Shown here one piece after another: positions 16,595-58,564 of a stretch of DNA of 64,000 nucleotides. The position numbers were made by a program, and so were the translations under genes. A model generated the notes under the pieces. That model ran no database searches. It saw nothing but the letters and a program-made list of their open reading frames with translations, and had not been told where the DNA came from. Within the stretch, counting starts at the first letter, position 1; every line of letters begins with the position of its first letter. Source of the DNA: an uncultured Candidatus Saccharibacteria bacterium (GTDB lineage Bacteria; Patescibacteriota; Minisyncoccia; Phycocordibacterales; DATDWN01); NCBI GenBank assembly GCA_964603545.1, contig CAZRVD010000003.1, positions 4,945-68,944 of the forward strand, given 5' to 3'.

Positions 16595-16645
16595 GCCGGT
16601 CACACGCATTGCATGACCGGGCCTTGAACCCCCTCGACCGAAGCC
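16595..16645 (-). terminator. Intrinsic terminator of the collagen-like gene
   Basis: GGCCGGTCAcacgcattgcaTGACCGGGCC hairpin, followed on the minus strand by a T-rich run. Confidence 0.55.
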
Positions 16646-16652
16646 GAGGAAC

Positions 16653-17678
16653 TTACTGCGGGGTGTGCTCGTGTATCGCCACTGCACTCAAGAGGTCTTG
16701 AGTGAGTGGAATGAGCGGAATCTTACCGTAGGTCAGAAATTGGTCGAGTGGTACCCACCCGCTGATCCAGGCCTTCCGTGCCTTGACGATTGCCAGGACG
16801 GTGTCGAGGTTGACCACGCACATGTGGAACCGCGGATTCTCCCACTGATTCTTCTCCCTGTTCAGTGTGTACATGTTGCCGATGAAGTAAAACGAGGCGG
16901 TTGAGGCCGGCTCGATGTTCGTCCATCGGAACGGTGCGACTTCTCCTCCCCGAGTGAAGCCGATGACTTCCTTCTTGTTGAGGTTGAAGAGTACCATCAC
17001 GTCCGTTTCGGGCGTGAACATGTACAGCCACTCACAGGGGCCATCCGGAGCTGGCACGGTGCCTGTGACGGTATTCGCCGTCACCACGAGACCTGGAATC
17101 TCGAAGTCCGCATGAACCTGCTTGAGGCGTTCACACATCGCGATCGTTCCCGGAGGGCCTGCCGGACCTTGCGGACCAGTTGCACCGGGAACGCCCTGTG
17201 GACCCATGGGGCCAGCCGGTCCGGGAGGTCCCGGAGGGCCGGGTTCACCATTGACCTGGTTCAGAAACCAGATCACGTGCCCAACGTACGCTCCAGCTTT
17301 AAGCTGGGTCACGCCGTTGTTGAACACCGATTTGGTGATCACGTCAACTCCATTCACCTTTTCGATAGTGTAGACCCATGCGTCGACCAGTCCCGGTGAC
17401 ACCTGCTTGACGCTGATGTTGTGAAGAGCTCCGCCCACCACGTGGACGACCTTGCACTGCCCGATTCCGAGACGTGCCGTTGTCAGCACTCCGAGGGACT
17501 CAATGCGGTAACCTGCGTAGACATTGCTACGCAGATCCTCGCAGATTTGAACGACCTCATATGTTGGCACCCCTGAAGCGTCCTCACCGACGGCTGGAAC
17601 GTTGGCCTGGGCACCTTCGGCCAACAAGTTCATGCCCAGAAAGATCGCGAGCCAGAGAACTGCCTTTATCACCTTCAT
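16653..17678 (-). CDS. Secreted collagen-like triple-helix-repeat protein (signal peptide + 11 G-X-Y triplets + C-terminal globular domain), G+C-rich foreign gene
   Basis: Start at [25 protein letters not shown], preceded by [41 protein letters not shown] run. Composition is visibly G+C-rich versus flanks. Confidence 0.7.
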
Positions 17679-17753
17679 CACTTTCTTTCTCCCTTGCCAA
17701 CTTAATGGCTTTTTGCACTGCCGAAAATGGCAACACAAATCTGTTCTGTGCGC

Positions 17754-17782
17754 ACCGTAGCACCTTTCACAATTTTTGTCAA
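17754..17782 (-). promoter_or_regulatory. sigma70-like promoter of the collagen-like gene (TTGACA -17- TACGGT)
   Basis: On the minus strand: TTGACAaaaattgtgaaaggtgcTACGGT. SD AAGGGAG lies upstream of the ATG. Confidence 0.5.
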
Positions 17783-17794
17783 GAGGTACTCCTA

Positions 17795-18058
17795 CTACAT
17801 CAAACTCTTTAAATCTGACTCATATTTTTTAACAACATTCATTGTGGCTGTCATTTGGTCCAAACCTTTTTTCATTTCTTCCTGTACCTCAAGTCCAATT
17901 TTTTCAAAAAGCTGTGGATTTTTCTCTAACATACTAAAAATCTTTTCTTGTTCGGCCTGCGGAACACCTTTCATTTTTGAAGCCAGCATTTTTTTTATAA
18001 AAAAATTTTTTATTGACATAGGGCTCATAATATCAACAAATAAACTAGTCGTCCACAT
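17795..18058 (-). CDS. Hypothetical small protein (87 aa), native composition
   Basis: ORF only. It may be a remnant or C-terminal fragment adjacent to the foreign insertion. Confidence 0.25.
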
Positions 18059-18079: not shown

Positions 18080-18874
18080 ATGTCCTGGAAAACAACGATT
18101 ATATTCTTCACTCTGTCAGTTGGTGGCCTTATCGGAATGATGACTTACTATAATCTAGATTTTTCTCTCCTTACTTCCCTTTCCTTTTATGAAAGTCTAG
18201 CAAATCCTTCTATTAGAATTGTAAAAGTGCAAGAGGGTCTCCGAAAAGAAGAAATAGCGGAAGTAGTGGGAACGAAACTTAGTTGGAGTGAGAAGGAGAA
18301 GACAAACTTTATAAATGCCCACCTAGCTCTAAACAGTGACAACTTGGAAGGAAAATACTTTCCAAAAACTTATATGTTAGACAAGGACGAGGACCCGATG
18401 GGAGTAACCGCCCTAATGCTAAAACAATTTTCTAAAGAAACTTCGACAATAAAAAAACAAAAAACAATGCAGGTGGTAAACCAGGACACTGCGGTAATTA
18501 TTGCATCAATCATTCAAAGAGAAGCTGCGGGTAAAAGAGATATGAAGTTAATCTCTGGGATTATTTGGAATAGACTTTGGAAAGGTATGAAACTCCAGAT
18601 GGATGCTACGCTACAATATGCAAAAGGTAGTGAGGAAGAAGGTTGGTGGATGAGAGTGGAATCCGCAGATAAGAAAATAGATTCTCCATATAATACTTAC
18701 ATAGAAGAAGGTCTCCCTCCATCTGCCATAGCAAATCCGGGGCTAGCCGCACTAGACGCTGCTTACAATCCACAAAAAACATCTTGCTTGTTTTATCTAC
18801 ACGACAAAAAAAGGAATATTCATTGCGCCAAGACATACGAGGAGCATAAGAGAAATATAAAGAGATATTTATAA
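18080..18874 (+). CDS. Second MltG/YceG-family endolytic transglycosylase paralog
   Basis: C-terminal DSPYNTYIEEGLPPSAIANPG; N-terminal TM. Confidence 0.75.
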   Translation: MSWKTTIIFFTLSVGGLIGMMTYYNLDFSLLTSLSFYESLANPSIRIVKVQEGLRKEEIAEVVGTKLSWSEKEKTNFINAHLALNSDNLEGKYFPKTYMLDKDEDPMGVTALMLKQFSKETSTIKKQKTMQVVNQDTAVIIASIIQREAAGKRDMKLISGIIWNRLWKGMKLQMDATLQYAKGSEEEGWWMRVESADKKIDSPYNTYIEEGLPPSAIANPGLAALDAAYNPQKTSCLFYLHDKKRNIHCAKTYEEHKRNIKRYL

Positions 18875-18993: not shown

Positions 18994-19902
18994 TTACCAA
19001 GCTAGGAAATTCCACCAAGGTCTACCAGAAACTGTAGTTGTTCCGGTTGCTGAAATTGAGTAAGTAATCTCAGGTGTTACTGGGAAAAGGAAGAGTAGTC
19101 TTGCTTTTCTTTTTGCCTTAACTTCATAAGTCGCAGGCGCATCATCTGTACTTTCTACTTTTACAGCAGAGACAAAACTTTCATCAGCTTTTAGTTCCAA
19201 AACTGGTGGATTGTTAAATCCTCCAACTTTTGCTCCAGGACTTGTGGCACTACCGCCTCCGCCAGAAACAGGTTTGTCTGGAACGCAATTACCATTTGCA
19301 CAAATAGAACAGTTTTCTCCCTCTTCACCATTTGGACAAATTATAATCTTATCGACATAATTTATTGTTCCCCGACCAAAATCTCTTCCCACAGGAATGA
19401 TTCCAGGCCCAGGTGTTGGAGTAGGTGTTGGACCTCCTGAAGTATCATCGTCTCCATCACTGTCATCTGCTTCAGCAACACTAACACTAAAAGTAGCACT
19501 AGTATCTGTTATATTTGCAACTTTTACCTTAAGAGCTAGAGCATTTACAGAACCGCCTTCGCTTATGGTAAATGTCTGACTATAAGCTGGAGCTCCTAGA
19601 CATCTTGGGTCAGCATTTGGTCCACACCCACCAGCAGTTGAGATATTTACTTGAACACTTCTGTTTCCACTAGACGGATTAACTGGATTTCCTAGAGGAC
19701 AAGGAGTCATGCTTGGGACACAATCACCAACACTAGAGCTTACTTTTAGAAGCTCTATCTGCATATTTTGATAATTGGTAATAGTTACTTTCTCACCAAC
19801 TTTTAAAGAAAAAGTTGAAGGATAGTTAACTGAACTGTCAGCATAGGCTACTCCAGCAGAAAGTAGTAATGCAAAAACCCCCACTAATAATGTTTTTTTC
19901 AT
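18994..19902 (-). CDS. Secreted hypothetical protein (signal peptide, Cys-rich, acidic DSDGDDD linker)
   Basis: MKKTLLVGVFALLLSAGVAYA signal peptide. Confidence 0.5.
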   Translation of the reverse strand: MKKTLLVGVFALLLSAGVAYADSSVNYPSTFSLKVGEKVTITNYQNMQIELLKVSSSVGDCVPSMTPCPLGNPVNPSSGNRSVQVNISTAGGCGPNADPRCLGAPAYSQTFTISEGGSVNALALKVKVANITDTSATFSVSVAEADDSDGDDDTSGGPTPTPTPGPGIIPVGRDFGRGTINYVDKIIICPNGEEGENCSICANGNCVPDKPVSGGGGSATSPGAKVGGFNNPPVLELKADESFVSAVKVESTDDAPATYEVKAKRKARLLFLFPVTPEITYSISATGTTTVSGRPWWNFLAW

Positions 19903-19939
19903 TTTTTTAAAATTTTAAATAATTATAACTAGCTAAATA

Positions 19940-20434
19940 ATACCACCAAAAGTGGATTTTGGGAATGGTTATCCACACATCTGGTGCTAACTGTATAGAC
20001 GCTTTGGCACGGTGAATATTACATAAACAACAAACCGGGCGCTTTTGGGCGACCGGTTGCAGGTTTACTGCGGGAGACCAGGAAAAATCCCCGCAGTCAT
20101 AGACGTCTTGCTCGAGGCAAGAATCGTCTGAATAGTATCAAAGAACGCCAGAAGGGTTCGTTCGATACCAGAGAAAATCTCTGGGGTAAGGAACTTAATC
20201 GTGATAATTAGCATTCCAAACCCAACAGTTCGTAGTATTTTCATACTTTTGTTGTAGAGGGAGAGACCTAAGTTACTGTTCCGACAAACAGTAACCTGAT
20301 ATTGCTAATTACCAGATTGCCCCCCTCATCCACGATGACCAATAAATTGATCAGAATGGAAGAAAAGAGGTTCCGATTTATCCGTACGCCAGCTTGCCAG
20401 CGTTTTAGGATTGTTTAATTATCAAATAACTTAC
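19940..20434 (-). ncRNA. Candidate ~500-nt structured non-coding RNA of unknown class, promoter-to-terminator unit
   Basis: No ORF of 60 aa or more on either strand across ~500 nt. Extended -10 TGGTATAAT on the minus strand at 20441-20449. Terminator-like hairpin CCAAAAgtggatTTTTGG at 19946-19962 followed by a T-run. Many strong internal hairpins (GTTACTGTTtgtcggAACAGTAAC, CTGCGGG...CCCGCAG, CTTGCctcgaGCAAG). G+C above flanks. Confidence 0.35.
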
Positions 20435-20473
20435 GCCCGCATTATACCACACATTCAATGAAAAAAGCAATGC

Positions 20474-20887
20474 CTATTTTAAGACTTTAATATAGTAGTC
20501 AGAGCTCCCATATAGGGTATACTCTCCACCACTAGTCCTTTCAGCATAAACTTCTGCTTTTTTACCAATATGTTGCTCCACTTCACTAATAGAATCTACT
20601 CCTATAAGATTACCTGCTTCTTGATCAGGCAAAAGCCTACCTCCAGAAACAACGATGATCTCTTTACCATCAACTGTTACACTACAGACGCCATCAAAAA
20701 TACAGTCGAGTTTAACTCCAGTAATATTTCCTACCCATTTCACACCCTTACCACCTACTTCTGTACTAGAACTAGATTCTTGTGAGATTATAAAATTTAC
20801 CAATGGGTCAACCCAATACTTTTGGGTGCTAAGTAATCCCAGACCTATGATTATGAGAATTAAAAGTATTACTTGTATAAATCTCAT
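20474..20887 (-). CDS. Hypothetical membrane-anchored or secreted small protein
   Basis: N-terminal hydrophobic helix MRFIQVILLILIIIGLGLL. Confidence 0.4.
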   Translation of the reverse strand: MRFIQVILLILIIIGLGLLSTQKYWVDPLVNFIISQESSSSTEVGGKGVKWVGNITGVKLDCIFDGVCSVTVDGKEIIVVSGGRLLPDQEAGNLIGVDSISEVEQHIGKKAEVYAERTSGGEYTLYGSSDYYIKVLK

Positions 20888-21278: not shown

Positions 21279-21364
21279 ATTTTTTATTTAATTGTAATGA
21301 CTTAATTATAACAAATGTATAAATTTATATGACACTACGCTATCCACTTTCAAAAATTCTAGAA

Positions 21365-21402
21365 AATCACCGACAAAACAAAGCCACGTCGATGCGTGGC
21401 TT
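21365..21402 (-). terminator. Intrinsic terminator of the 21443-21679 foreign gene
   Basis: AAGCCACGtcgatgCGTGGCTT hairpin followed by a T-rich run on the minus strand. Confidence 0.5.
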
Positions 21403-21442
21403 AGATTTCCAAGGGAACCAGTCTTGCCAGTCGTGCCAGGGT

Positions 21443-21679
21443 CTAGACCTGCCGACGACACGGGTCGCCGGAGCAGATGTTTACAAACTTGCATCTGCTA
21501 CAGTCCAGATTTGGGTCTGAAAACCCACCAACTCCATCCCGATTCTCCGTCATTGCGATCGTGCGCCTGTTGGCATCATTGGAGAACATTACTGCCTCTG
21601 ATGATGACATGCCCACCATGGCAAGAACCGAGAACTGCTGTGCGATAGCCTCTCTTATCTGACGTGACTTGAATGCCAT
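21443..21679 (-). CDS. Small G+C-rich foreign protein (~78 aa) with a C-terminal 4-Cys cluster
   Basis: Start chosen at MAFKSRQ because GGGGAGGG SD lies 9 nt upstream. C-terminus CSRCKFVNICSGDPC. Has its own promoter (TTGACA -17- TAGAAT at 21710-21738) and terminator. Confidence 0.4.
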   Translation of the reverse strand: MAFKSRQIREAIAQQFSVLAMVGMSSSEAVMFSNDANRRTIAMTENRDGVGGFSDPNLDCSRCKFVNICSGDPCRRQV

Positions 21680-21733
21680 AACCCTGACCCTCCCCATACA
21701 TCCTTTTTTATTCTATTCCTCCTGTTTAATCTG

Positions 21734-24949: not shown

Positions 24950-25092
24950 AACTACATTTTACCATTATTAACTTGAAATGGCTTAATTAAGAGAATTGGG
25001 TGTTTGAGGGATTAAATTTATATAAAGACGAAGACCGCTGGGCGAACCATGCGGTCTTAACGAGTGAGAGTCTGAACTAGGAGAGACTCAGG

Positions 25093-25350
25093 ATGGCCGT
25101 TGCGAACGCATACGAAGTTCGCAACGTTGTCTCGTCATCCATTGTTCCGTTTGCCATTGCATCTGCAGTTTCGCTGCCGAGACATGCACGGAAAAAACCA
25201 GGCTCCGCCGCCTTCTCTCTCAACCAAGCGACAATCTCGCTTTTAACCATCGGCTTCTCCTCCTCTGATTATCAGAATATCATGTTAATCGGATTTGTCA
25301 AGTTTGTGGACCATAGGACTCTTCCTTCATTCTGTTTCGCCGTCGCTTAA
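25093..25350 (+). CDS. Doubtful small ORF in a G+C-rich, hairpin-dense region; may be non-coding
   Basis: AGGAGA sits 10 nt upstream of the ATG. But the reading frame contains perfect palindromes (GTTGCGAACgcatacgaaGTTCGCAAC). Confidence 0.2.
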   Translation: MAVANAYEVRNVVSSSIVPFAIASAVSLPRHARKKPGSAAFSLNQATISLLTIGFSSSDYQNIMLIGFVKFVDHRTLPSFCFAVA

Positions 25351-25481
25351 CAGAATTCAGGACGCAGATTCACGACAAGCGCTACTGCGCTCGTAAACCG
25401 TGAATCTGTTCGAGTCCTGACGTAAAGCTTTGCTTTACTTCGGGTCCACAACGAAAAAAGCGCCTCTCGGCGTTTTCGTTG

Positions 25482-25554
25482 TGGACCCGACAGGACTCGA
25501 ACCTGCCACCCCATCATTGCAAATGATGTGCTCTACCAGATGAGCTACGGGCCC
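25482..25554 (-). tRNA. tRNA-Ala (anticodon UGC)
   Basis: Reverse complement GGGCCCGTAGCTCATCTGGTAGAGCACATCATTTGCAATGATGGGGTGGCAGGTTCGAGTCCTGTCGGGTCCA. Cloverleaf folds, anticodon loop TTTGCAA, G3:U70 Ala identity pair, 73 nt, CCA not encoded. Confidence 0.85.
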
Positions 25555-25761
25555 ATTATGCCTAAGTAAATTAAACTGCTTTAATTTACTTTGGACTTAT
25601 GGGAGCCAGAGACATGTTTCGCTACCAAGCTAAACAGTCGAGGCGGGGTCGCGGAATTCTGCGAACGACGGTGAGCAAAATATCTGTGACCTAATGAAGA
25701 TTACCAAAATTATTTACAAAATTCAAGCGGGCACTTCGCGTGCCCGCTCGTGTGAGCTGTA

Positions 25762-26019
25762 CTACTTCTTTCGCTTGAGCTCGGCCAGTTCGTGTGAGGT
25801 CTCGTTCAACTGCGCACGAAGAGAAGCGATGAGCTTCACGGCTTCACTATTCTCCTTAAGGAGTCTTTTCAGCTCATCTTTGTGCTCGTTCCGCTTTGCA
25901 AAGTACTCACGAGCCTGGAAATTCCTGTTGTTCACTAAGGTTTGAACCTGTCGTTTGGTACGAGACTTGCGGTCTTTACGCGGTGGAAGTTCCTCGAGTC
26001 TTTTTCTGGTTTTGCCCAT
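25762..26019 (-). CDS. Small basic coiled-coil protein (85 aa), G+C-rich foreign
   Basis: GGAGGA SD 9 nt upstream. K/R/E-rich heptad-like sequence. GCGGGCACttcgCGTGCCCGC terminator at 25728-25755. Confidence 0.45.
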   Translation of the reverse strand: MGKTRKRLEELPPRKDRKSRTKRQVQTLVNNRNFQAREYFAKRNEHKDELKRLLKENSEAVKLIASLRAQLNETSHELAELKRKK

Positions 26020-26113
26020 CAGCGTTATCCTCCGTCTGGTAGATAGCTTATTGGTTTAAGACAGACTAGTCAACTTTGGTTAAAATTTCTTTCATTTACA
26101 AATAACAATAATA

Positions 26114-40193: not shown

Positions 40194-40204
40194 GAAAAAA
40201 TTTT

Positions 40205-40251
40205 ATCATAGTATACGAAACCGCCCAAGCGAAGCGCGGCTTCGCTTGGGC
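40205..40251 (-). terminator. Intrinsic terminator of the Cys-rich foreign gene
   Basis: Perfect 14-bp stem CGCCCAAGCGAAGCgcgGCTTCGCTTGGGCG then a T-rich tail on the minus strand. Confidence 0.55.
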
Positions 40252-40252
40252 G

Positions 40253-40573
40253 TCATCCAAGAATTTCTCTCTTGATCTGCTCGAGGGTCTCGAGATCATG
40301 TTCACAGGAAATGCCCTGCTCTGCACAGTTGACGCACCCGCAGTCTCTTGAAGAGCCAGCGGGGTTGACCCAAACTGCACACCATGGGCCGACAACGTCC
40401 TGACCGAGATCATCAAACGCACAAAGCGCAACCTCACAATCTCCCTCAACGAAACGGGCGAGAAGGTCATTGGGTTGACCAGGTTGGGGGAAAATCCCCA
40501 CGTAGTAGAAACCACTTGCCTGCGCGGACTCGGGTGATTTGACTTGTTCCTCCACGTATCTCATCATGCGCAC
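40253..40573 (-). CDS. Small G+C-rich foreign Cys-rich protein (106 aa, 7 Cys)
   Basis: TTGACA -35, SD GGTAGAGGTG, DCEVALCAFDD...RDCGCVNCAEQGISCEHD. Confidence 0.4.
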   Translation of the reverse strand: MRMMRYVEEQVKSPESAQASGFYYVGIFPQPGQPNDLLARFVEGDCEVALCAFDDLGQDVVGPWCAVWVNPAGSSRDCGCVNCAEQGISCEHDLETLEQIKREILG

Positions 40574-40613
40574 CTCTACCCTACATGATGTAACTGCAAA
40601 GCAAAAATGTCAA

Positions 40614-41852: not shown

Positions 41853-42039
41853 TTATTTAATTATTGAGAATTATTAAAGAACTTATTCGTTTAATATTTT
41901 TGCCTAAATTCTTATCTCGTAAGTTCAAAATGGAAGCAATGCTTACCAACAATTAGAGAAAAATCTCTGAAGGAAACTAGTGAGAATAACTCAATGCTTA
42001 CACTATAAACTATTGCGTTTCAAATGTCAAACTTGATAC

Positions 42040-42068
42040 TTGACTTTCTACATTAGAGATGCTATAAT
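42040..42068 (+). promoter_or_regulatory. Consensus sigma70 promoter (TTGACT -17- TATAAT) of the Pro-rich membrane protein cassette
   Basis: acTTGACTttctacattagagatgcTATAATtaag. Confidence 0.55.
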
Positions 42069-42147
42069 TAAGTGCAGGAATTCGTTGGTGTTGGTCTCCC
42101 CGAGGATGGGGTGAGACACTCTCGAATCTTTGACAGGGAGTACGCTC

Positions 42148-43047
42148 ATGACTCGACTGGTTCGGATTTTCGTCCTCGCCTTGGCGGTTACGCTGGTCGC
42201 CAGCACCGCAATGGCACAGAAGGGACAGTTCGTTGCTCCTGTGAATGCGGAACTCGACAAGTTCCCCATCTACAACGACGTGCTGACAGTGGCCCAGATG
42301 GCCAAGCACGAACTCACGGTGAAGGTTCTCACGGAGCCCACCGTCGTGCACAACCACTTCCGTGGCCTGCACGGCAAGGACGGGCGCTTCGTCCTGGAAC
42401 TCTTGCCCACCGGAACAATCGTGTTGGTGGACAAGGACGGTAGGATCCGCTACAAAGCGGACTGCGGGAATCGGCTGAGCGAAATGCCGCCGCCTCCCGC
42501 ACCCGTCTTGGGACCGGCGACACCCGTACCGTGCATCCCGGAAATTCTTCCGCTCGCTCCCAAACAGAGTGGGTGGTCGTGGTTCTGGGGTGGCATGTGG
42601 AATTTCCTTGCCTGGATCGCCAACGGTCTGGGCGGGTTGCTGGCAGGAATCTGGCACTGCCTGTGGTTCCTGCTGACCAGCATCGGCTGGCTGTTCCTCT
42701 TGGCGCTCATTCTGTGGTTGACATGGCGACTGTTGCGCTACCTCTTCGGAGGTAACCAGCAGAACAACGCCTGGGGAGGGGGCAACAACCCGCCTGCTCC
42801 AGTCGCACCGCTCGTCACACCGCGACAGACGGCGACGCCACCGCCGGCTCCGACACCTTCAGCAGTCGCCCCTTCGGCGATTCCTGTGGTGGCGGGACCG
42901 CTCACCACCCCCGATCGCTCTTTCCTGAACTTCAACCCAGGGGATGTGGGTCGTCCGGACATGCTGACGTGGGGCGGGCGGATCACTCCGCACTCCTACG
43001 AGGACCGGCCGGACGGGAGTCACGCACTCCGATTCTATCGGAGGTAA
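42148..43047 (+). CDS. G+C-rich foreign secreted/membrane protein (signal peptide, two central TM helices, Pro/Ala-rich C-terminal region)
   Basis: AGGGAG SD before the MTRLVRIFVLALAVTLVASTAMAQ start. The region is very G+C-rich. Confidence 0.5.
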   Translation: MTRLVRIFVLALAVTLVASTAMAQKGQFVAPVNAELDKFPIYNDVLTVAQMAKHELTVKVLTEPTVVHNHFRGLHGKDGRFVLELLPTGTIVLVDKDGRIRYKADCGNRLSEMPPPPAPVLGPATPVPCIPEILPLAPKQSGWSWFWGGMWNFLAWIANGLGGLLAGIWHCLWFLLTSIGWLFLLALILWLTWRLLRYLFGGNQQNNAWGGGNNPPAPVAPLVTPRQTATPPPAPTPSAVAPSAIPVVAGPLTTPDRSFLNFNPGDVGRPDMLTWGGRITPHSYEDRPDGSHALRFYRR

Positions 43048-43066
43048 CATAGAGGGGTCATCCCTC

Positions 43067-43105
43067 GGCGGCAGGTCCCACAAGACCTGCCGCCATTTCG
43101 TATAC
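43067..43105 (+). terminator. Intrinsic terminator of the 42148-43047 gene
   Basis: Perfect 11-bp stem GGCGGCAGGTCccacaaGACCTGCCGCC followed by ATTTCGTAT. Confidence 0.6.
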
Positions 43106-57969: not shown

Positions 57970-58031
57970 TTTTAGACAAGACGATGGGGGCGCATCCCCC
58001 GAAGGAAATGCGCCCGTAGTACACGTCAGAT

Positions 58032-58439
58032 CTAGCCGACCTGGAAGGTCCTCATCAGGGTTTCCGAGGTCGCCGCCTCGAGGTCGCTTGCGAGAATCCT
58101 CGCCAGCATCGGATGCTCTCCGCTGACTGCGGTTCCACAGCTCTTCGGGATGACCCCGTCCACTGCCTCGTTCCGGTGTGGCATGACTGAGTACATGTAG
58201 AACCGAACCTGCGGATTGACCTGCTTTACCAGGCGGGCCAACTGCGAGCCCTCGATATGGCTGTCGAAGACCTGACCAGAGACCACGAACGCCGGAGAGC
58301 CATCCATCACAGCGTCCAGAACGGCTTCTGGAATACTGGTGAAGAGGATCTCCCGGGATCTCGCAGGATCGATCTTGGCAACCCCCTCCTTGATTCCGAG
58401 CAGATTCTCGCGATGACGCTGAGCCACGATGATCTTCAT
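58032..58439 (-). CDS. G+C-rich foreign hypothetical protein (136 aa)
   Basis: AAGGGAGGG SD before MKIIVAQ. GGGCGCATcccccgaaggaaATGCGCCC hairpin downstream at 57988-58015. No confident family assignment. Confidence 0.4.
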   Translation of the reverse strand: MKIIVAQRHRENLLGIKEGVAKIDPARSREILFTSIPEAVLDAVMDGSPAFVVSGQVFDSHIEGSQLARLVKQVNPQVRFYMYSVMPHRNEAVDGVIPKSCGTAVSGEHPMLARILASDLEAATSETLMRTFQVG

Positions 58440-58564
58440 ATGCCCTCCCTTGGGTAGAAACAACGAACAGAAATCCTGAACCTTATGACATTATACACCC
58501 GTTTACTATTATTGTCAAATACAATTTTAGTACTAAAACAACCTTACTTATACGACCAAAATTA

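Follow-up and report, generated by a model that had tools for sequence, protein, structure and literature searches.

Organization of the locus

The 64,000-nucleotide (nt) stretch of DNA analyzed here (the window) is part of contig CAZRVD010000003.1 from an uncultured Candidatus Saccharibacteria bacterium. Positions 19940-20450, between two minus-strand protein genes, had been described preliminarily as a candidate large structured RNA free of open reading frames (ORFs). There is indeed no ORF of 60 or more amino acids (aa) in this region, but a conserved ORF of 59 aa lies on the minus strand at 20244-20065. Directly 5' of this ORF is a structured leader of about 125 nt that contains three hairpins (P1-P3). 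The minus strand of 19940-20450 is probably, though by no means certainly, a single-gene transcript for a conserved small protein behind a structured leader (Table 1). Thus, the RNA unit that runs from promoter to terminator stands, and its RNA structure appears to be selected, but it is not a stand-alone large RNA.

The extended -10 element that had been noticed on the minus strand, TGGTATAAT at 20449-20441, is probably the real promoter of the unit. Relatives carry TGnTATAAT at the equivalent place, followed after 6-9 nt by GUA(A/G)G. In these relatives a distance of 21-41 nt usually separates the end of the -10 box (mostly TGnTATAAT) from a conserved GGAAC downstream. The pattern in the window, TGGTATAAT-GCGGGC-GUAAG, fits these relatives, and about 59 nt separate its -10 box from GGAAC. 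A consensus promoter scan does not call TTGCTT at 20465-20470 as a -35 element. The motif at the 5' end of the transcript has the family consensus GUArG...(A/C/U)UUGAAA, often with a second GAAC. It sits about 20-25 nt upstream of GGAAC in relatives, and its copy in the window, UUUGAUAAUUA, is complementary to ORF codons 12-15.

A terminator hairpin had been proposed at the far end of the region. That hairpin, at 19943-19955, is a 5-bp stem overlapping the TG-extended -10 of the next gene, and the real terminator is located at 20058-20025. It has the features of an intrinsic (Rho-independent) terminator, a G+C-rich hairpin with a U-run just past the stop codon. Of 41 relatives, 38 likewise have a hairpin of -8 kcal/mol or lower plus a U-run directly behind the stop codon. 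With transcription starting near G20434 and ending at this terminator, the unit would therefore span about 20434 to about 20027 on the minus strand, roughly 410 nt with one gene. About 180 of these bases are translated ORF. Because the terminator separates the genes, it is the small ORF inside the region, and not the downstream gene, that the leader precedes. The suggestion that the region is the leader of the downstream secreted-protein gene also fails on the promoter which that gene has of its own, and on the neighbor at this place in relatives, which differs or lies on the opposite strand. One relative, L002, has TGGTATAAT at the position aligned with the next gene's -10.

The G+C content of the region is raised as reported, but only modestly (0.41-0.49 versus a window mean of 0.38). 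The description of the region as hairpin-dense is borne out on the minus strand, which folds at -175.1 kcal/mol (z = -7.57), whereas its dinucleotide shuffles give -128.9 +/- 6.1 kcal/mol. For the plus strand z is only -3.62, and this asymmetry is the expected trace of an RNA read from the minus strand. No other copies of the region were found in the window; it is single-copy, so a repeat or mobile element was rejected.

Table 1. Features of the small-gene unit and the adjacent downstream promoter
Feature	Positions	Strand	Basis or remarks
-35-like hexamer TTGCTT, weak (3/6 versus TTGACA)	20465-20470	minus	Read from sequence; 18 nt upstream of -10
Extended -10 TGGTATAAT	20441-20449	minus	Read from sequence; transcription predicted to start near G20434
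5'-terminal motif GUAAGUUAUUUGAUAAUUAAAC	20413-20434	minus	Promoter-proximal comparison, about 40 loci
Extra leader segment	20375-20412	minus	About 59 nt from -10 to GGAAC in window versus 21-41 in most relatives
GGAAC, leader strand of helix A	20370-20374	minus	Nearly invariant
P1, long hairpin: 5' strand CCUCUUUUCUUCC, pyrimidine-rich; 3' strand GGAUGAGGGGGG, purine-rich	20320-20369	minus	20 pairs, 93.4% paired, 11 compensatory
P2, local hairpin (CUGGUA / UAUCAG), loop AUUAGCAA	20296-20315	minus	All 4 modeled pairs compensatory
P3, hairpin with core GUUACUGUU / AACAGUAAC, loop motif U-n-GUC	20270-20297	minus	9 pairs, all compensatory, 91.1% paired
Pyrimidine-rich tail (family consensus CUUCUCUC-AA), leader strand of helix C	20245-20269	minus	A-rich spacer before AUG
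ORF, 59 codons plus stop, MKILRTVGFGMLIITIKFLTPEIFSGIERTLLAFFDTIQTILASSKTSMTAGIFPGLPQ	20065-20244	minus	Conserved protein; one codon under the earlier 60-aa cut-off
ORF strand of helix B, UGCUAAUUAUCACGAUU	20197-20213	minus	16 bp in the predicted fold of the window copy
GUUCC, ORF strand of helix A (nt +51 to +55, Lys17-Phe18-Leu19)	20190-20194	minus	Pairs with GGAAC 20374-20370
Hairpin inside ORF (nt +77 to +110), family core GAGAACAC / GUGUUCUU	20135-20168	minus	87% paired, mostly invariant
Intrinsic terminator (AACCGGUCGC...GCGCCCGGUU then UGUUGUUU)	20025-20058	minus	Directly after stop codon
Promoter of next gene (18994-19902): -35 TTCCCA 19965-19960, TG-extended -10 TATTAT (TGGTATTAT) 19942-19937	19937-19965	minus	Outside the unit

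A conserved small protein

A protein search with the ORF returned four relatives with 65-75% identity, and a scan of species-representative genomes yielded 25 loci. The names attached to these 25 are Parcubacteria, Paceibacterota, Zambryskibacteria, Taylorbacteria and Ryanbacteria, and some are pipeline-labeled Saccharibacteria. Comparisons below use a set of 45 fetched loci (identified by L numbers), all of which keep an open frame of 54-69 codons. The proteins share the motif MKILRVxGxGLxIIxLKFLxPxIFxGxENTLLxFF, which is followed by a variable C-terminus, and identity among relatives is 52-76%. Codons vary beneath fixed residues. For example, Leu4 is encoded by CTA, TTA, CTT, CTC and TTG, and Arg5 by CGA, AGA, CGC, AGG and CGT, across both codon families. 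Since residues are kept while codons change, and pN/pS is 0.38 (with pS about 0.63), the ORF appears to be translated.

The family is larger than the set of fetched loci. A profile search of 1.84 billion representatives finds 162 proteins at E <= 0.001, nearly all of them 45-120 aa long; one match of 1295 aa, P0055, is repetitive and looks false. Searches of Pfam, NCBIfam and PADLOC assign the protein to no family. Its N-terminal 17 or so residues are hydrophobic and the remainder is amphipathic. At the N terminus, the Kyte-Doolittle maximum over 19 residues reaches 1.5 in the window protein and 2.25 in the family consensus. The protein is probably membrane-anchored. AlphaFold predicts one long helix with low confidence (pLDDT 69).

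Structure of the leader

The leader can be described as three hairpins between GGAAC and a pyrimidine-rich tail. P1 has conserved tandem U-G pairs at its base and a variable apex, and a CAG linker joins it to P2. The P2 stem contains 4-6 bp, with (U)AAUUAG as the family loop. The tail lacks a Shine-Dalgarno (SD) sequence and is followed in the family by a spacer of about 10-15 A/U-rich nt that leads to the AUG. A comparison of five sequences was enough to reveal the long hairpin and another one, with compensatory changes. The outer helix CGGA/UCUG that RNAalifold proposed from the same number of sequences was replaced by P2.

Comparative covariation, proposed as a check in the preliminary description, supports this model. 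A covariance model built from 25 leaders finds exactly one copy per locus, whose end always falls at the AUG of the ORF; the window copy (20380-20239) scores 90.9 bits. Among 43 distinct aligned leaders, 91.7% of cells are paired versus 74.3% in shuffled and 53-60% in slid controls, for an alignment that was fitted to the model and so favors the structure; a MAFFT alignment points in the same direction. Compensatory changes occur in 24 of 33 leader pairs and in 239 cells versus 60.5 +/- 7. The covariation score is 0.522, compared to 0.214 for shuffled and at most 0.13 for slid alignments. Conserved secondary structure of this kind, with controls far lower, is what a cis-regulatory leader displays.

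The structure is strictly associated with one gene family. When metagenome contigs were scanned with an RNA-only pattern consisting of the base of P1 and the P2 loop, 26 stretches were recovered. The covariance model confirms 22, and each of these 22 is followed by the ORF. Conversely, 28 of 29 loci that were found through the protein have a leader detected by the model, and the exception, L017, carries a divergent version. The leader thus occupies a constant place upstream of one gene family and within the same transcript, as is also typical of cis-regulatory leaders.

No described RNA family accounts for the leader. Rfam 15 reports nothing at gathering scores in the whole window, and the leader matches no Rfam family in the region or in six relatives. 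At E <= 10, a search of 19700-20700 gives no RNase P, tmRNA, 6S, SRP, OLE, ROOL, GOLLD or raiA match; rli60, SNORA32 and mir-1256 appear at chance level only. A covariance match to RNaseP_bact_a/b that includes P4 and the core was not obtained. The six relatives likewise give no OLE, ROOL, GOLLD, raiA, 6S or SRP match. ARAGORN finds no tmRNA in the window, where it reports only a tRNA-Ala (25481-25554).

Pairing between the leader and its own coding sequence

Parts of the leader are predicted to pair with the coding sequence that follows, through helices designated A, B and C. Helix B joins the P2 region (20318-20303) to ORF nt +32 to +48 (20213-20197, codons 11-16). When RNAduplex searched the first 150 nt of each ORF, its top site fell at nt 28-48 for 34 of 40 members. 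Cognate duplexes average -16.0 kcal/mol and non-cognate ones -10.3 kcal/mol, and none of 10000 permutations reached the cognate mean. Helix B columns are 85.8% paired (79% shuffled, 25-57% slid), with compensatory changes in 9 of 14 pairs and in 44 cells versus 12.6 +/- 3.4.

The changes that maintain helix B fall at synonymous or conservative codon positions. Most members combine AAUUAG in the leader with CUA AUU in the ORF. The leader sequence GAUUAG faces CUA AUC in L010, L032 and L042, and UAUUAG faces CUA AUA in L013, such that the three P2 loop variants are mirrored by the Ile13 codons AUU, AUC and AUA. Other combinations are AAUCA with UUG AUU (L016), UAGUC with G ACU A (L011) and UAGCC with G GCU A (L001).

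Helix A joins GGAAC to GUUCC and is paired in 98% of cells. The Lys17 codon is AAG in 36 of 36 sequences and the Phe18 codon TTC in 39 of 39; synonymous sites in this helix are thus frozen. Helix C joins the tail to ORF nt +4 to +33 (codons 2-11). Cognate duplexes in this helix reach -16.0 kcal/mol versus -11.8 kcal/mol for non-cognate ones, again with 0 of 10000 permutations as stable.

All three helices also emerge when the RNA is folded as a whole. In minimum free energy (MFE) structures of the leader plus ORF positions 1-60, all 39 members form helix B, 38 of them helix A and 37 of them helix C. Joint folding gains -14.1 +/- 3.4 kcal/mol over separate folding, compared to -7.1 kcal/mol for non-cognate chimeras. 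The MFE structure of the window copy contains a helix B of 16 bp and a helix A of 5 bp. Together, the pairings make up a conserved, interrupted fold-back helix of about 45 bp, with P1 and P3 persisting as side branches. The most distant members (L017, L027 and L029; 35-52% protein identity) form a helix B of 13-19 bp from different sequences, and L017 and L027 have an additional helix of 12-13 bp beside the AUG. Codons 17-18 of L017 are CGC GCU, and their partner is GGGGCGG in place of GGAAC.

One further hairpin lies wholly within the ORF. At nt +82 to +104 it has a CCCUCCU-like loop, and synonymous sites in codons 31-35 are frozen. The evidence for it is weaker than that for the leader helices, and RNAalifold finds no column-consistent structure in ORF nt 55-147. 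Candidate hairpins at +61 to +77 and +116 to +144 do not hold up.

A putative conformational switch

Because helix B occupies the 5' strand and the loop of P2, it and the P2 hairpin are mutually exclusive. The pairing of the 3' strand of P2 with the ORF is partial and its register varies; helix B therefore needs no match between the two P2 strands. Nevertheless, P2 stems covary (CUGG/CCAG, CUGAC/GUCAG, GCUC/GAGC, GCCU/GGGC and GCGG/CCGC), which argues that the local hairpin and the long-range helix are both selected. Two exclusive states that both appear to be selected are the signature of a conformational switch. The best reading, in which moderate confidence seems justified from the comparative evidence, is that the leader switches between conformations and thereby controls, in cis, how the small-protein mRNA is translated or processed.

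The host provides an unusual setting for such a switch. An SD-like motif is present at only 3 of 50 gene starts in the window. Of 49 genes, 17 have a -10-like hexamer whose end lies exactly 6-7 nt ahead of the start codon, and in 22 this distance is 4-11 nt. With -10 boxes so close to start codons, many mRNAs should be leaderless. Thus, the organism appears to initiate translation without SD sequences and mostly on leaderless mRNAs, which makes an SD-less leader of 150-190 nt an exception. The idea that the purine strand of P1 mimics an SD sequence was abandoned, since SD sequences are not used in this genome.

In the nascent RNA, P1, P2 and P3 would fold locally and leave the A/U-rich start region free. 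Once codons 2-19 have been transcribed, and if ribosomes do not cover them, they would displace P2 and pair with GGAAC, the P2 region and the tail. This closed fold-back is predicted to be about 14 kcal/mol more stable than the local folds, and its helices would enclose the sequence on either side of the AUG as well as roughly 50 nt that follow. Where initiation depends on an unstructured start region, helices around the AUG would reduce or gate it. Expression might then be possible only for a brief period while the RNA is being made, or when particular conditions or a factor open the fold-back again or cut it.

Several observations weigh against this reading or limit it. The predicted occlusion of the start region is moderate, with a mean unpaired probability at -15 to +18 of 0.43 versus 0.52 for other genes of the window (p about 1e-4). 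Over +5 to +55 the values are 0.31 and 0.46, and positions +1 to +5 lie near an apical loop with an unpaired probability of 0.65. Occlusion may therefore be partial, and the duplex may serve processing or stability instead. Helix C is weak in the window, where it has 5 bp only. The P1 U-G pairs, the P3 GUC loop and the 5' UUGAAA are conserved for reasons that pairing with the ORF does not explain. The purine strand of P1 is also complementary to ORF nt +88 to +107 (in about 20 of 39 members) and to the tail (in about 7 of 39). All of the relatives are metagenome-derived. The extra partners of P1 and its U-G pairs, the P3 loop, the 5' UUGAAA and the frozen synonymous sites of codons 31-35 suggest that other alternative folds may exist or that a factor may bind.

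Alternative explanations and known systems

Type I toxin-antitoxin systems provide the closest parallel. Type I toxin ORFs are usually shorter than 60-70 aa, and the hydrophobic 59-aa ORF is of this kind. The unit might therefore be a toxin mRNA whose fold-back silences the primary transcript of a toxic hydrophobic peptide, with an unseen antisense RNA neutralizing the activated form. Family ORFs of 54-69 aa with a hydrophobic N-terminal helix, the compactness of the mRNA (z = -7.6), the long-range pairing around the start and the metastable local hairpin would all fit, and P2 with its ORF target resembles a loop-loop antisense pair. Pairing around the start is supported, and the predicted accessibility of the start is only moderately lower.

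Other properties of the locus make a toxin unlikely. Strong conservation, as seen for this protein (identity 52-76%, with 162 cluster representatives), is unusual for type I toxins. The protein is encoded once per locus in a constant neighborhood (yceG/mltG and VanW genes) across a broad lineage, and PADLOC reports no match. A conserved antisense promoter was not found across relatives. The -10-like GATAAT at +42 on the antisense strand simply reads the Leu-Ile-Ile codons in reverse complement, and members with different codons lack it. Three reasons speak against classifying the unit as a type I system: there is no sign of an antisense RNA, the gene occurs once and in synteny, and its protein is well conserved.

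The comparison with known toxin mRNAs is instructive nonetheless. Long-distance pairing of the start, transient hairpins and overlap of coding and structural sequence are characteristic of these RNAs (PMC5416894, PMC6733600, PMC9841398), and aapA1 and aapA3 display the same ingredients as the unit (PMC5416894, PMC6733600). Like hok/Sok of plasmid R1, aapA1/IsoA1 and aapA3/IsoA3 of Helicobacter pylori, and tisB/IstR, the unit combines a small hydrophobic ORF with a structured transcript of a few hundred nt. As in the hok, aapA and tisB mRNAs, long-range pairing, here predicted around the start, competes with transient hairpins, and coding and structure share sequence. Unlike in those mRNAs, the partner is the coding region (codons 2-19) rather than the 3' end, there is no SD sequence to sequester, and no antisense antitoxin is detected. 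The gene also differs in being single-copy, syntenic and conserved across a wide lineage of the candidate phyla radiation (CPR).

Another explanation, also quite unlikely, treats the duplex as a processing or stability element. A double-strand-specific RNase would cut it near the AUG to release a leaderless mRNA and a stable P1-P3 RNA. A leaderless mRNA would be the preferred substrate in this largely leaderless, SD-less organism, where the long leader is exceptional. The AUG is located at the apical end of helix C, and the interrupted helix of about 45 bp is conserved. There is also a precedent in aapA1, which is activated by 3' processing (PMC5416894). However, the proposal is purely inferential, and no cleavage site can be predicted.

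It is more doubtful that P1-P2-P3 acts as a riboswitch or protein-binding leader that senses a ligand, ion or protein and uses the ORF pairing as its expression platform. The unit resembles riboswitches and the cis-regulatory leaders of Rfam in that a covarying leader always precedes the same gene family and has two conserved conformations that exclude each other. The P1 tandem U-G pairs and the P3 GUC loop are conserved beyond what ORF pairing requires. Against this, most of the conserved nucleotides that seem unpaired in the leader (GGAAC, the P2 loop and the tail) are explained by ORF pairing and not by a binding pocket. The leader matches none of 4227 Rfam families, including riboswitches even at E <= 10. 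No ligand pocket is evident, the regulated gene offers no clue to a ligand, and the platform spans 55 nt of coding sequence, unlike in riboswitches.

The weakest candidates, a stand-alone large RNA (a divergent rnpB or ssrA, or one like OLE, ROOL or GOLLD) and a leader of the downstream gene, retain the strong predicted structure and the promoter/terminator framing in their favor, but the absence of Rfam and ARAGORN matches, the 180 nt of translated conserved ORF, the terminator before the downstream gene and the differing neighbor in relatives leave them a negligible likelihood.

Alternative leader folds that include pairing with early coding sequence also set ribosome access to the start in the MS2 maturation-protein gene and in the thermosensor of the Escherichia coli cspA 5' untranslated region. 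Initiation there is SD-dependent, and translation is favored on a nascent or alternative conformer. The unit shares with them a long 5' leader whose predicted alternative folds include pairing with early coding sequence. It differs in being SD-less, and its sequence and organism are unrelated.

A literature search on structured RNAs and riboswitches in Parcubacteria, Patescibacteria and the CPR found no description of the element. The leader and small ORF form a real, conserved unit that pairs with itself and is apparently undescribed. Tentatively, it might be a CPR-specific, self-antisense mRNA switch of SD-less hosts that has not been described before. It could represent the first type I toxin-like module there, or a leader that is refolded or cleaved to give a leaderless mRNA; in either case P1 and P3 would be the sensor or recognition site for a factor.

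Distribution and genomic context

The putative switch has so far been found only in CPR genomes of the Parcubacteria/Paceibacteria type. The small gene is syntenic. Downstream of it, 15 loci have a yceG/mltG gene on the opposite strand, which is directly adjacent in 7 of them, and VanW and acyltransferase genes recur upstream. The small gene and yceG/mltG converge on an apparent shared terminator in L005, L013, L016, L028, L037, L040 and L047. In the window, a gene for a 302-aa protein is inserted between the small gene and yceG; the coordinates given for this arrangement are 18080-18874. Genes of about 300 codons without a Pfam match are inserted at this place in the window, L006, L007 and L041.

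Other parts of the window and of the relatives contain features that are separate from the unit. Islands with a G+C content of 0.55-0.67, in a window of 0.38, are present at 16600-17800, 42000-43100, 58000-58500 and 40200-40600. The ORF at 16653-17738 gives a sub-threshold match to the Collagen triple-helix repeat (E = 8e-6, 25.9 bits versus a cut-off of 27.2). On the minus strand, 21279-21733 has no ORF of 100 or more aa, a G+C content of 0.44-0.53 and a fold z of only -2.6. It begins AGGAGG...AUG, contains ORFs of 62 and 84 codons and a clean terminator (21402-21381), and is probably another small gene rather than an RNA.

A 1.16-kb gap at 24950-26113 (G+C 0.46-0.51) is devoid of ORFs of 100 or more aa and contains a single tRNA-Ala(UGC) (25481-25554); apart from this tRNA, an E-value search of Rfam yields nothing credible there. 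Rfam and ARAGORN detect no rRNA, RNase P RNA or tmRNA in the window. A weak match to a tmRNA 3' end (13.1 bits, E = 0.04) occurs on the minus strand of L004 at 733-782, ending at the contig edge. It adjoins a tRNA and lies downstream of the small gene.

Implications

The locus carries a lesson for annotation, in that a 60-aa ORF cut-off or an RNA-only view would each misfile it. The same nucleotides appear to be selected both for the protein and for pairing with the leader, and synonymous codon choices track mutations in the leader. The unit adds a well-supported family of RNA structures and a small-protein family with 162 representatives to a group of bacteria in which regulatory RNA is almost unknown. 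It also offers a route to ask how bacteria without SD sequences control access to the start sites of their mRNAs.

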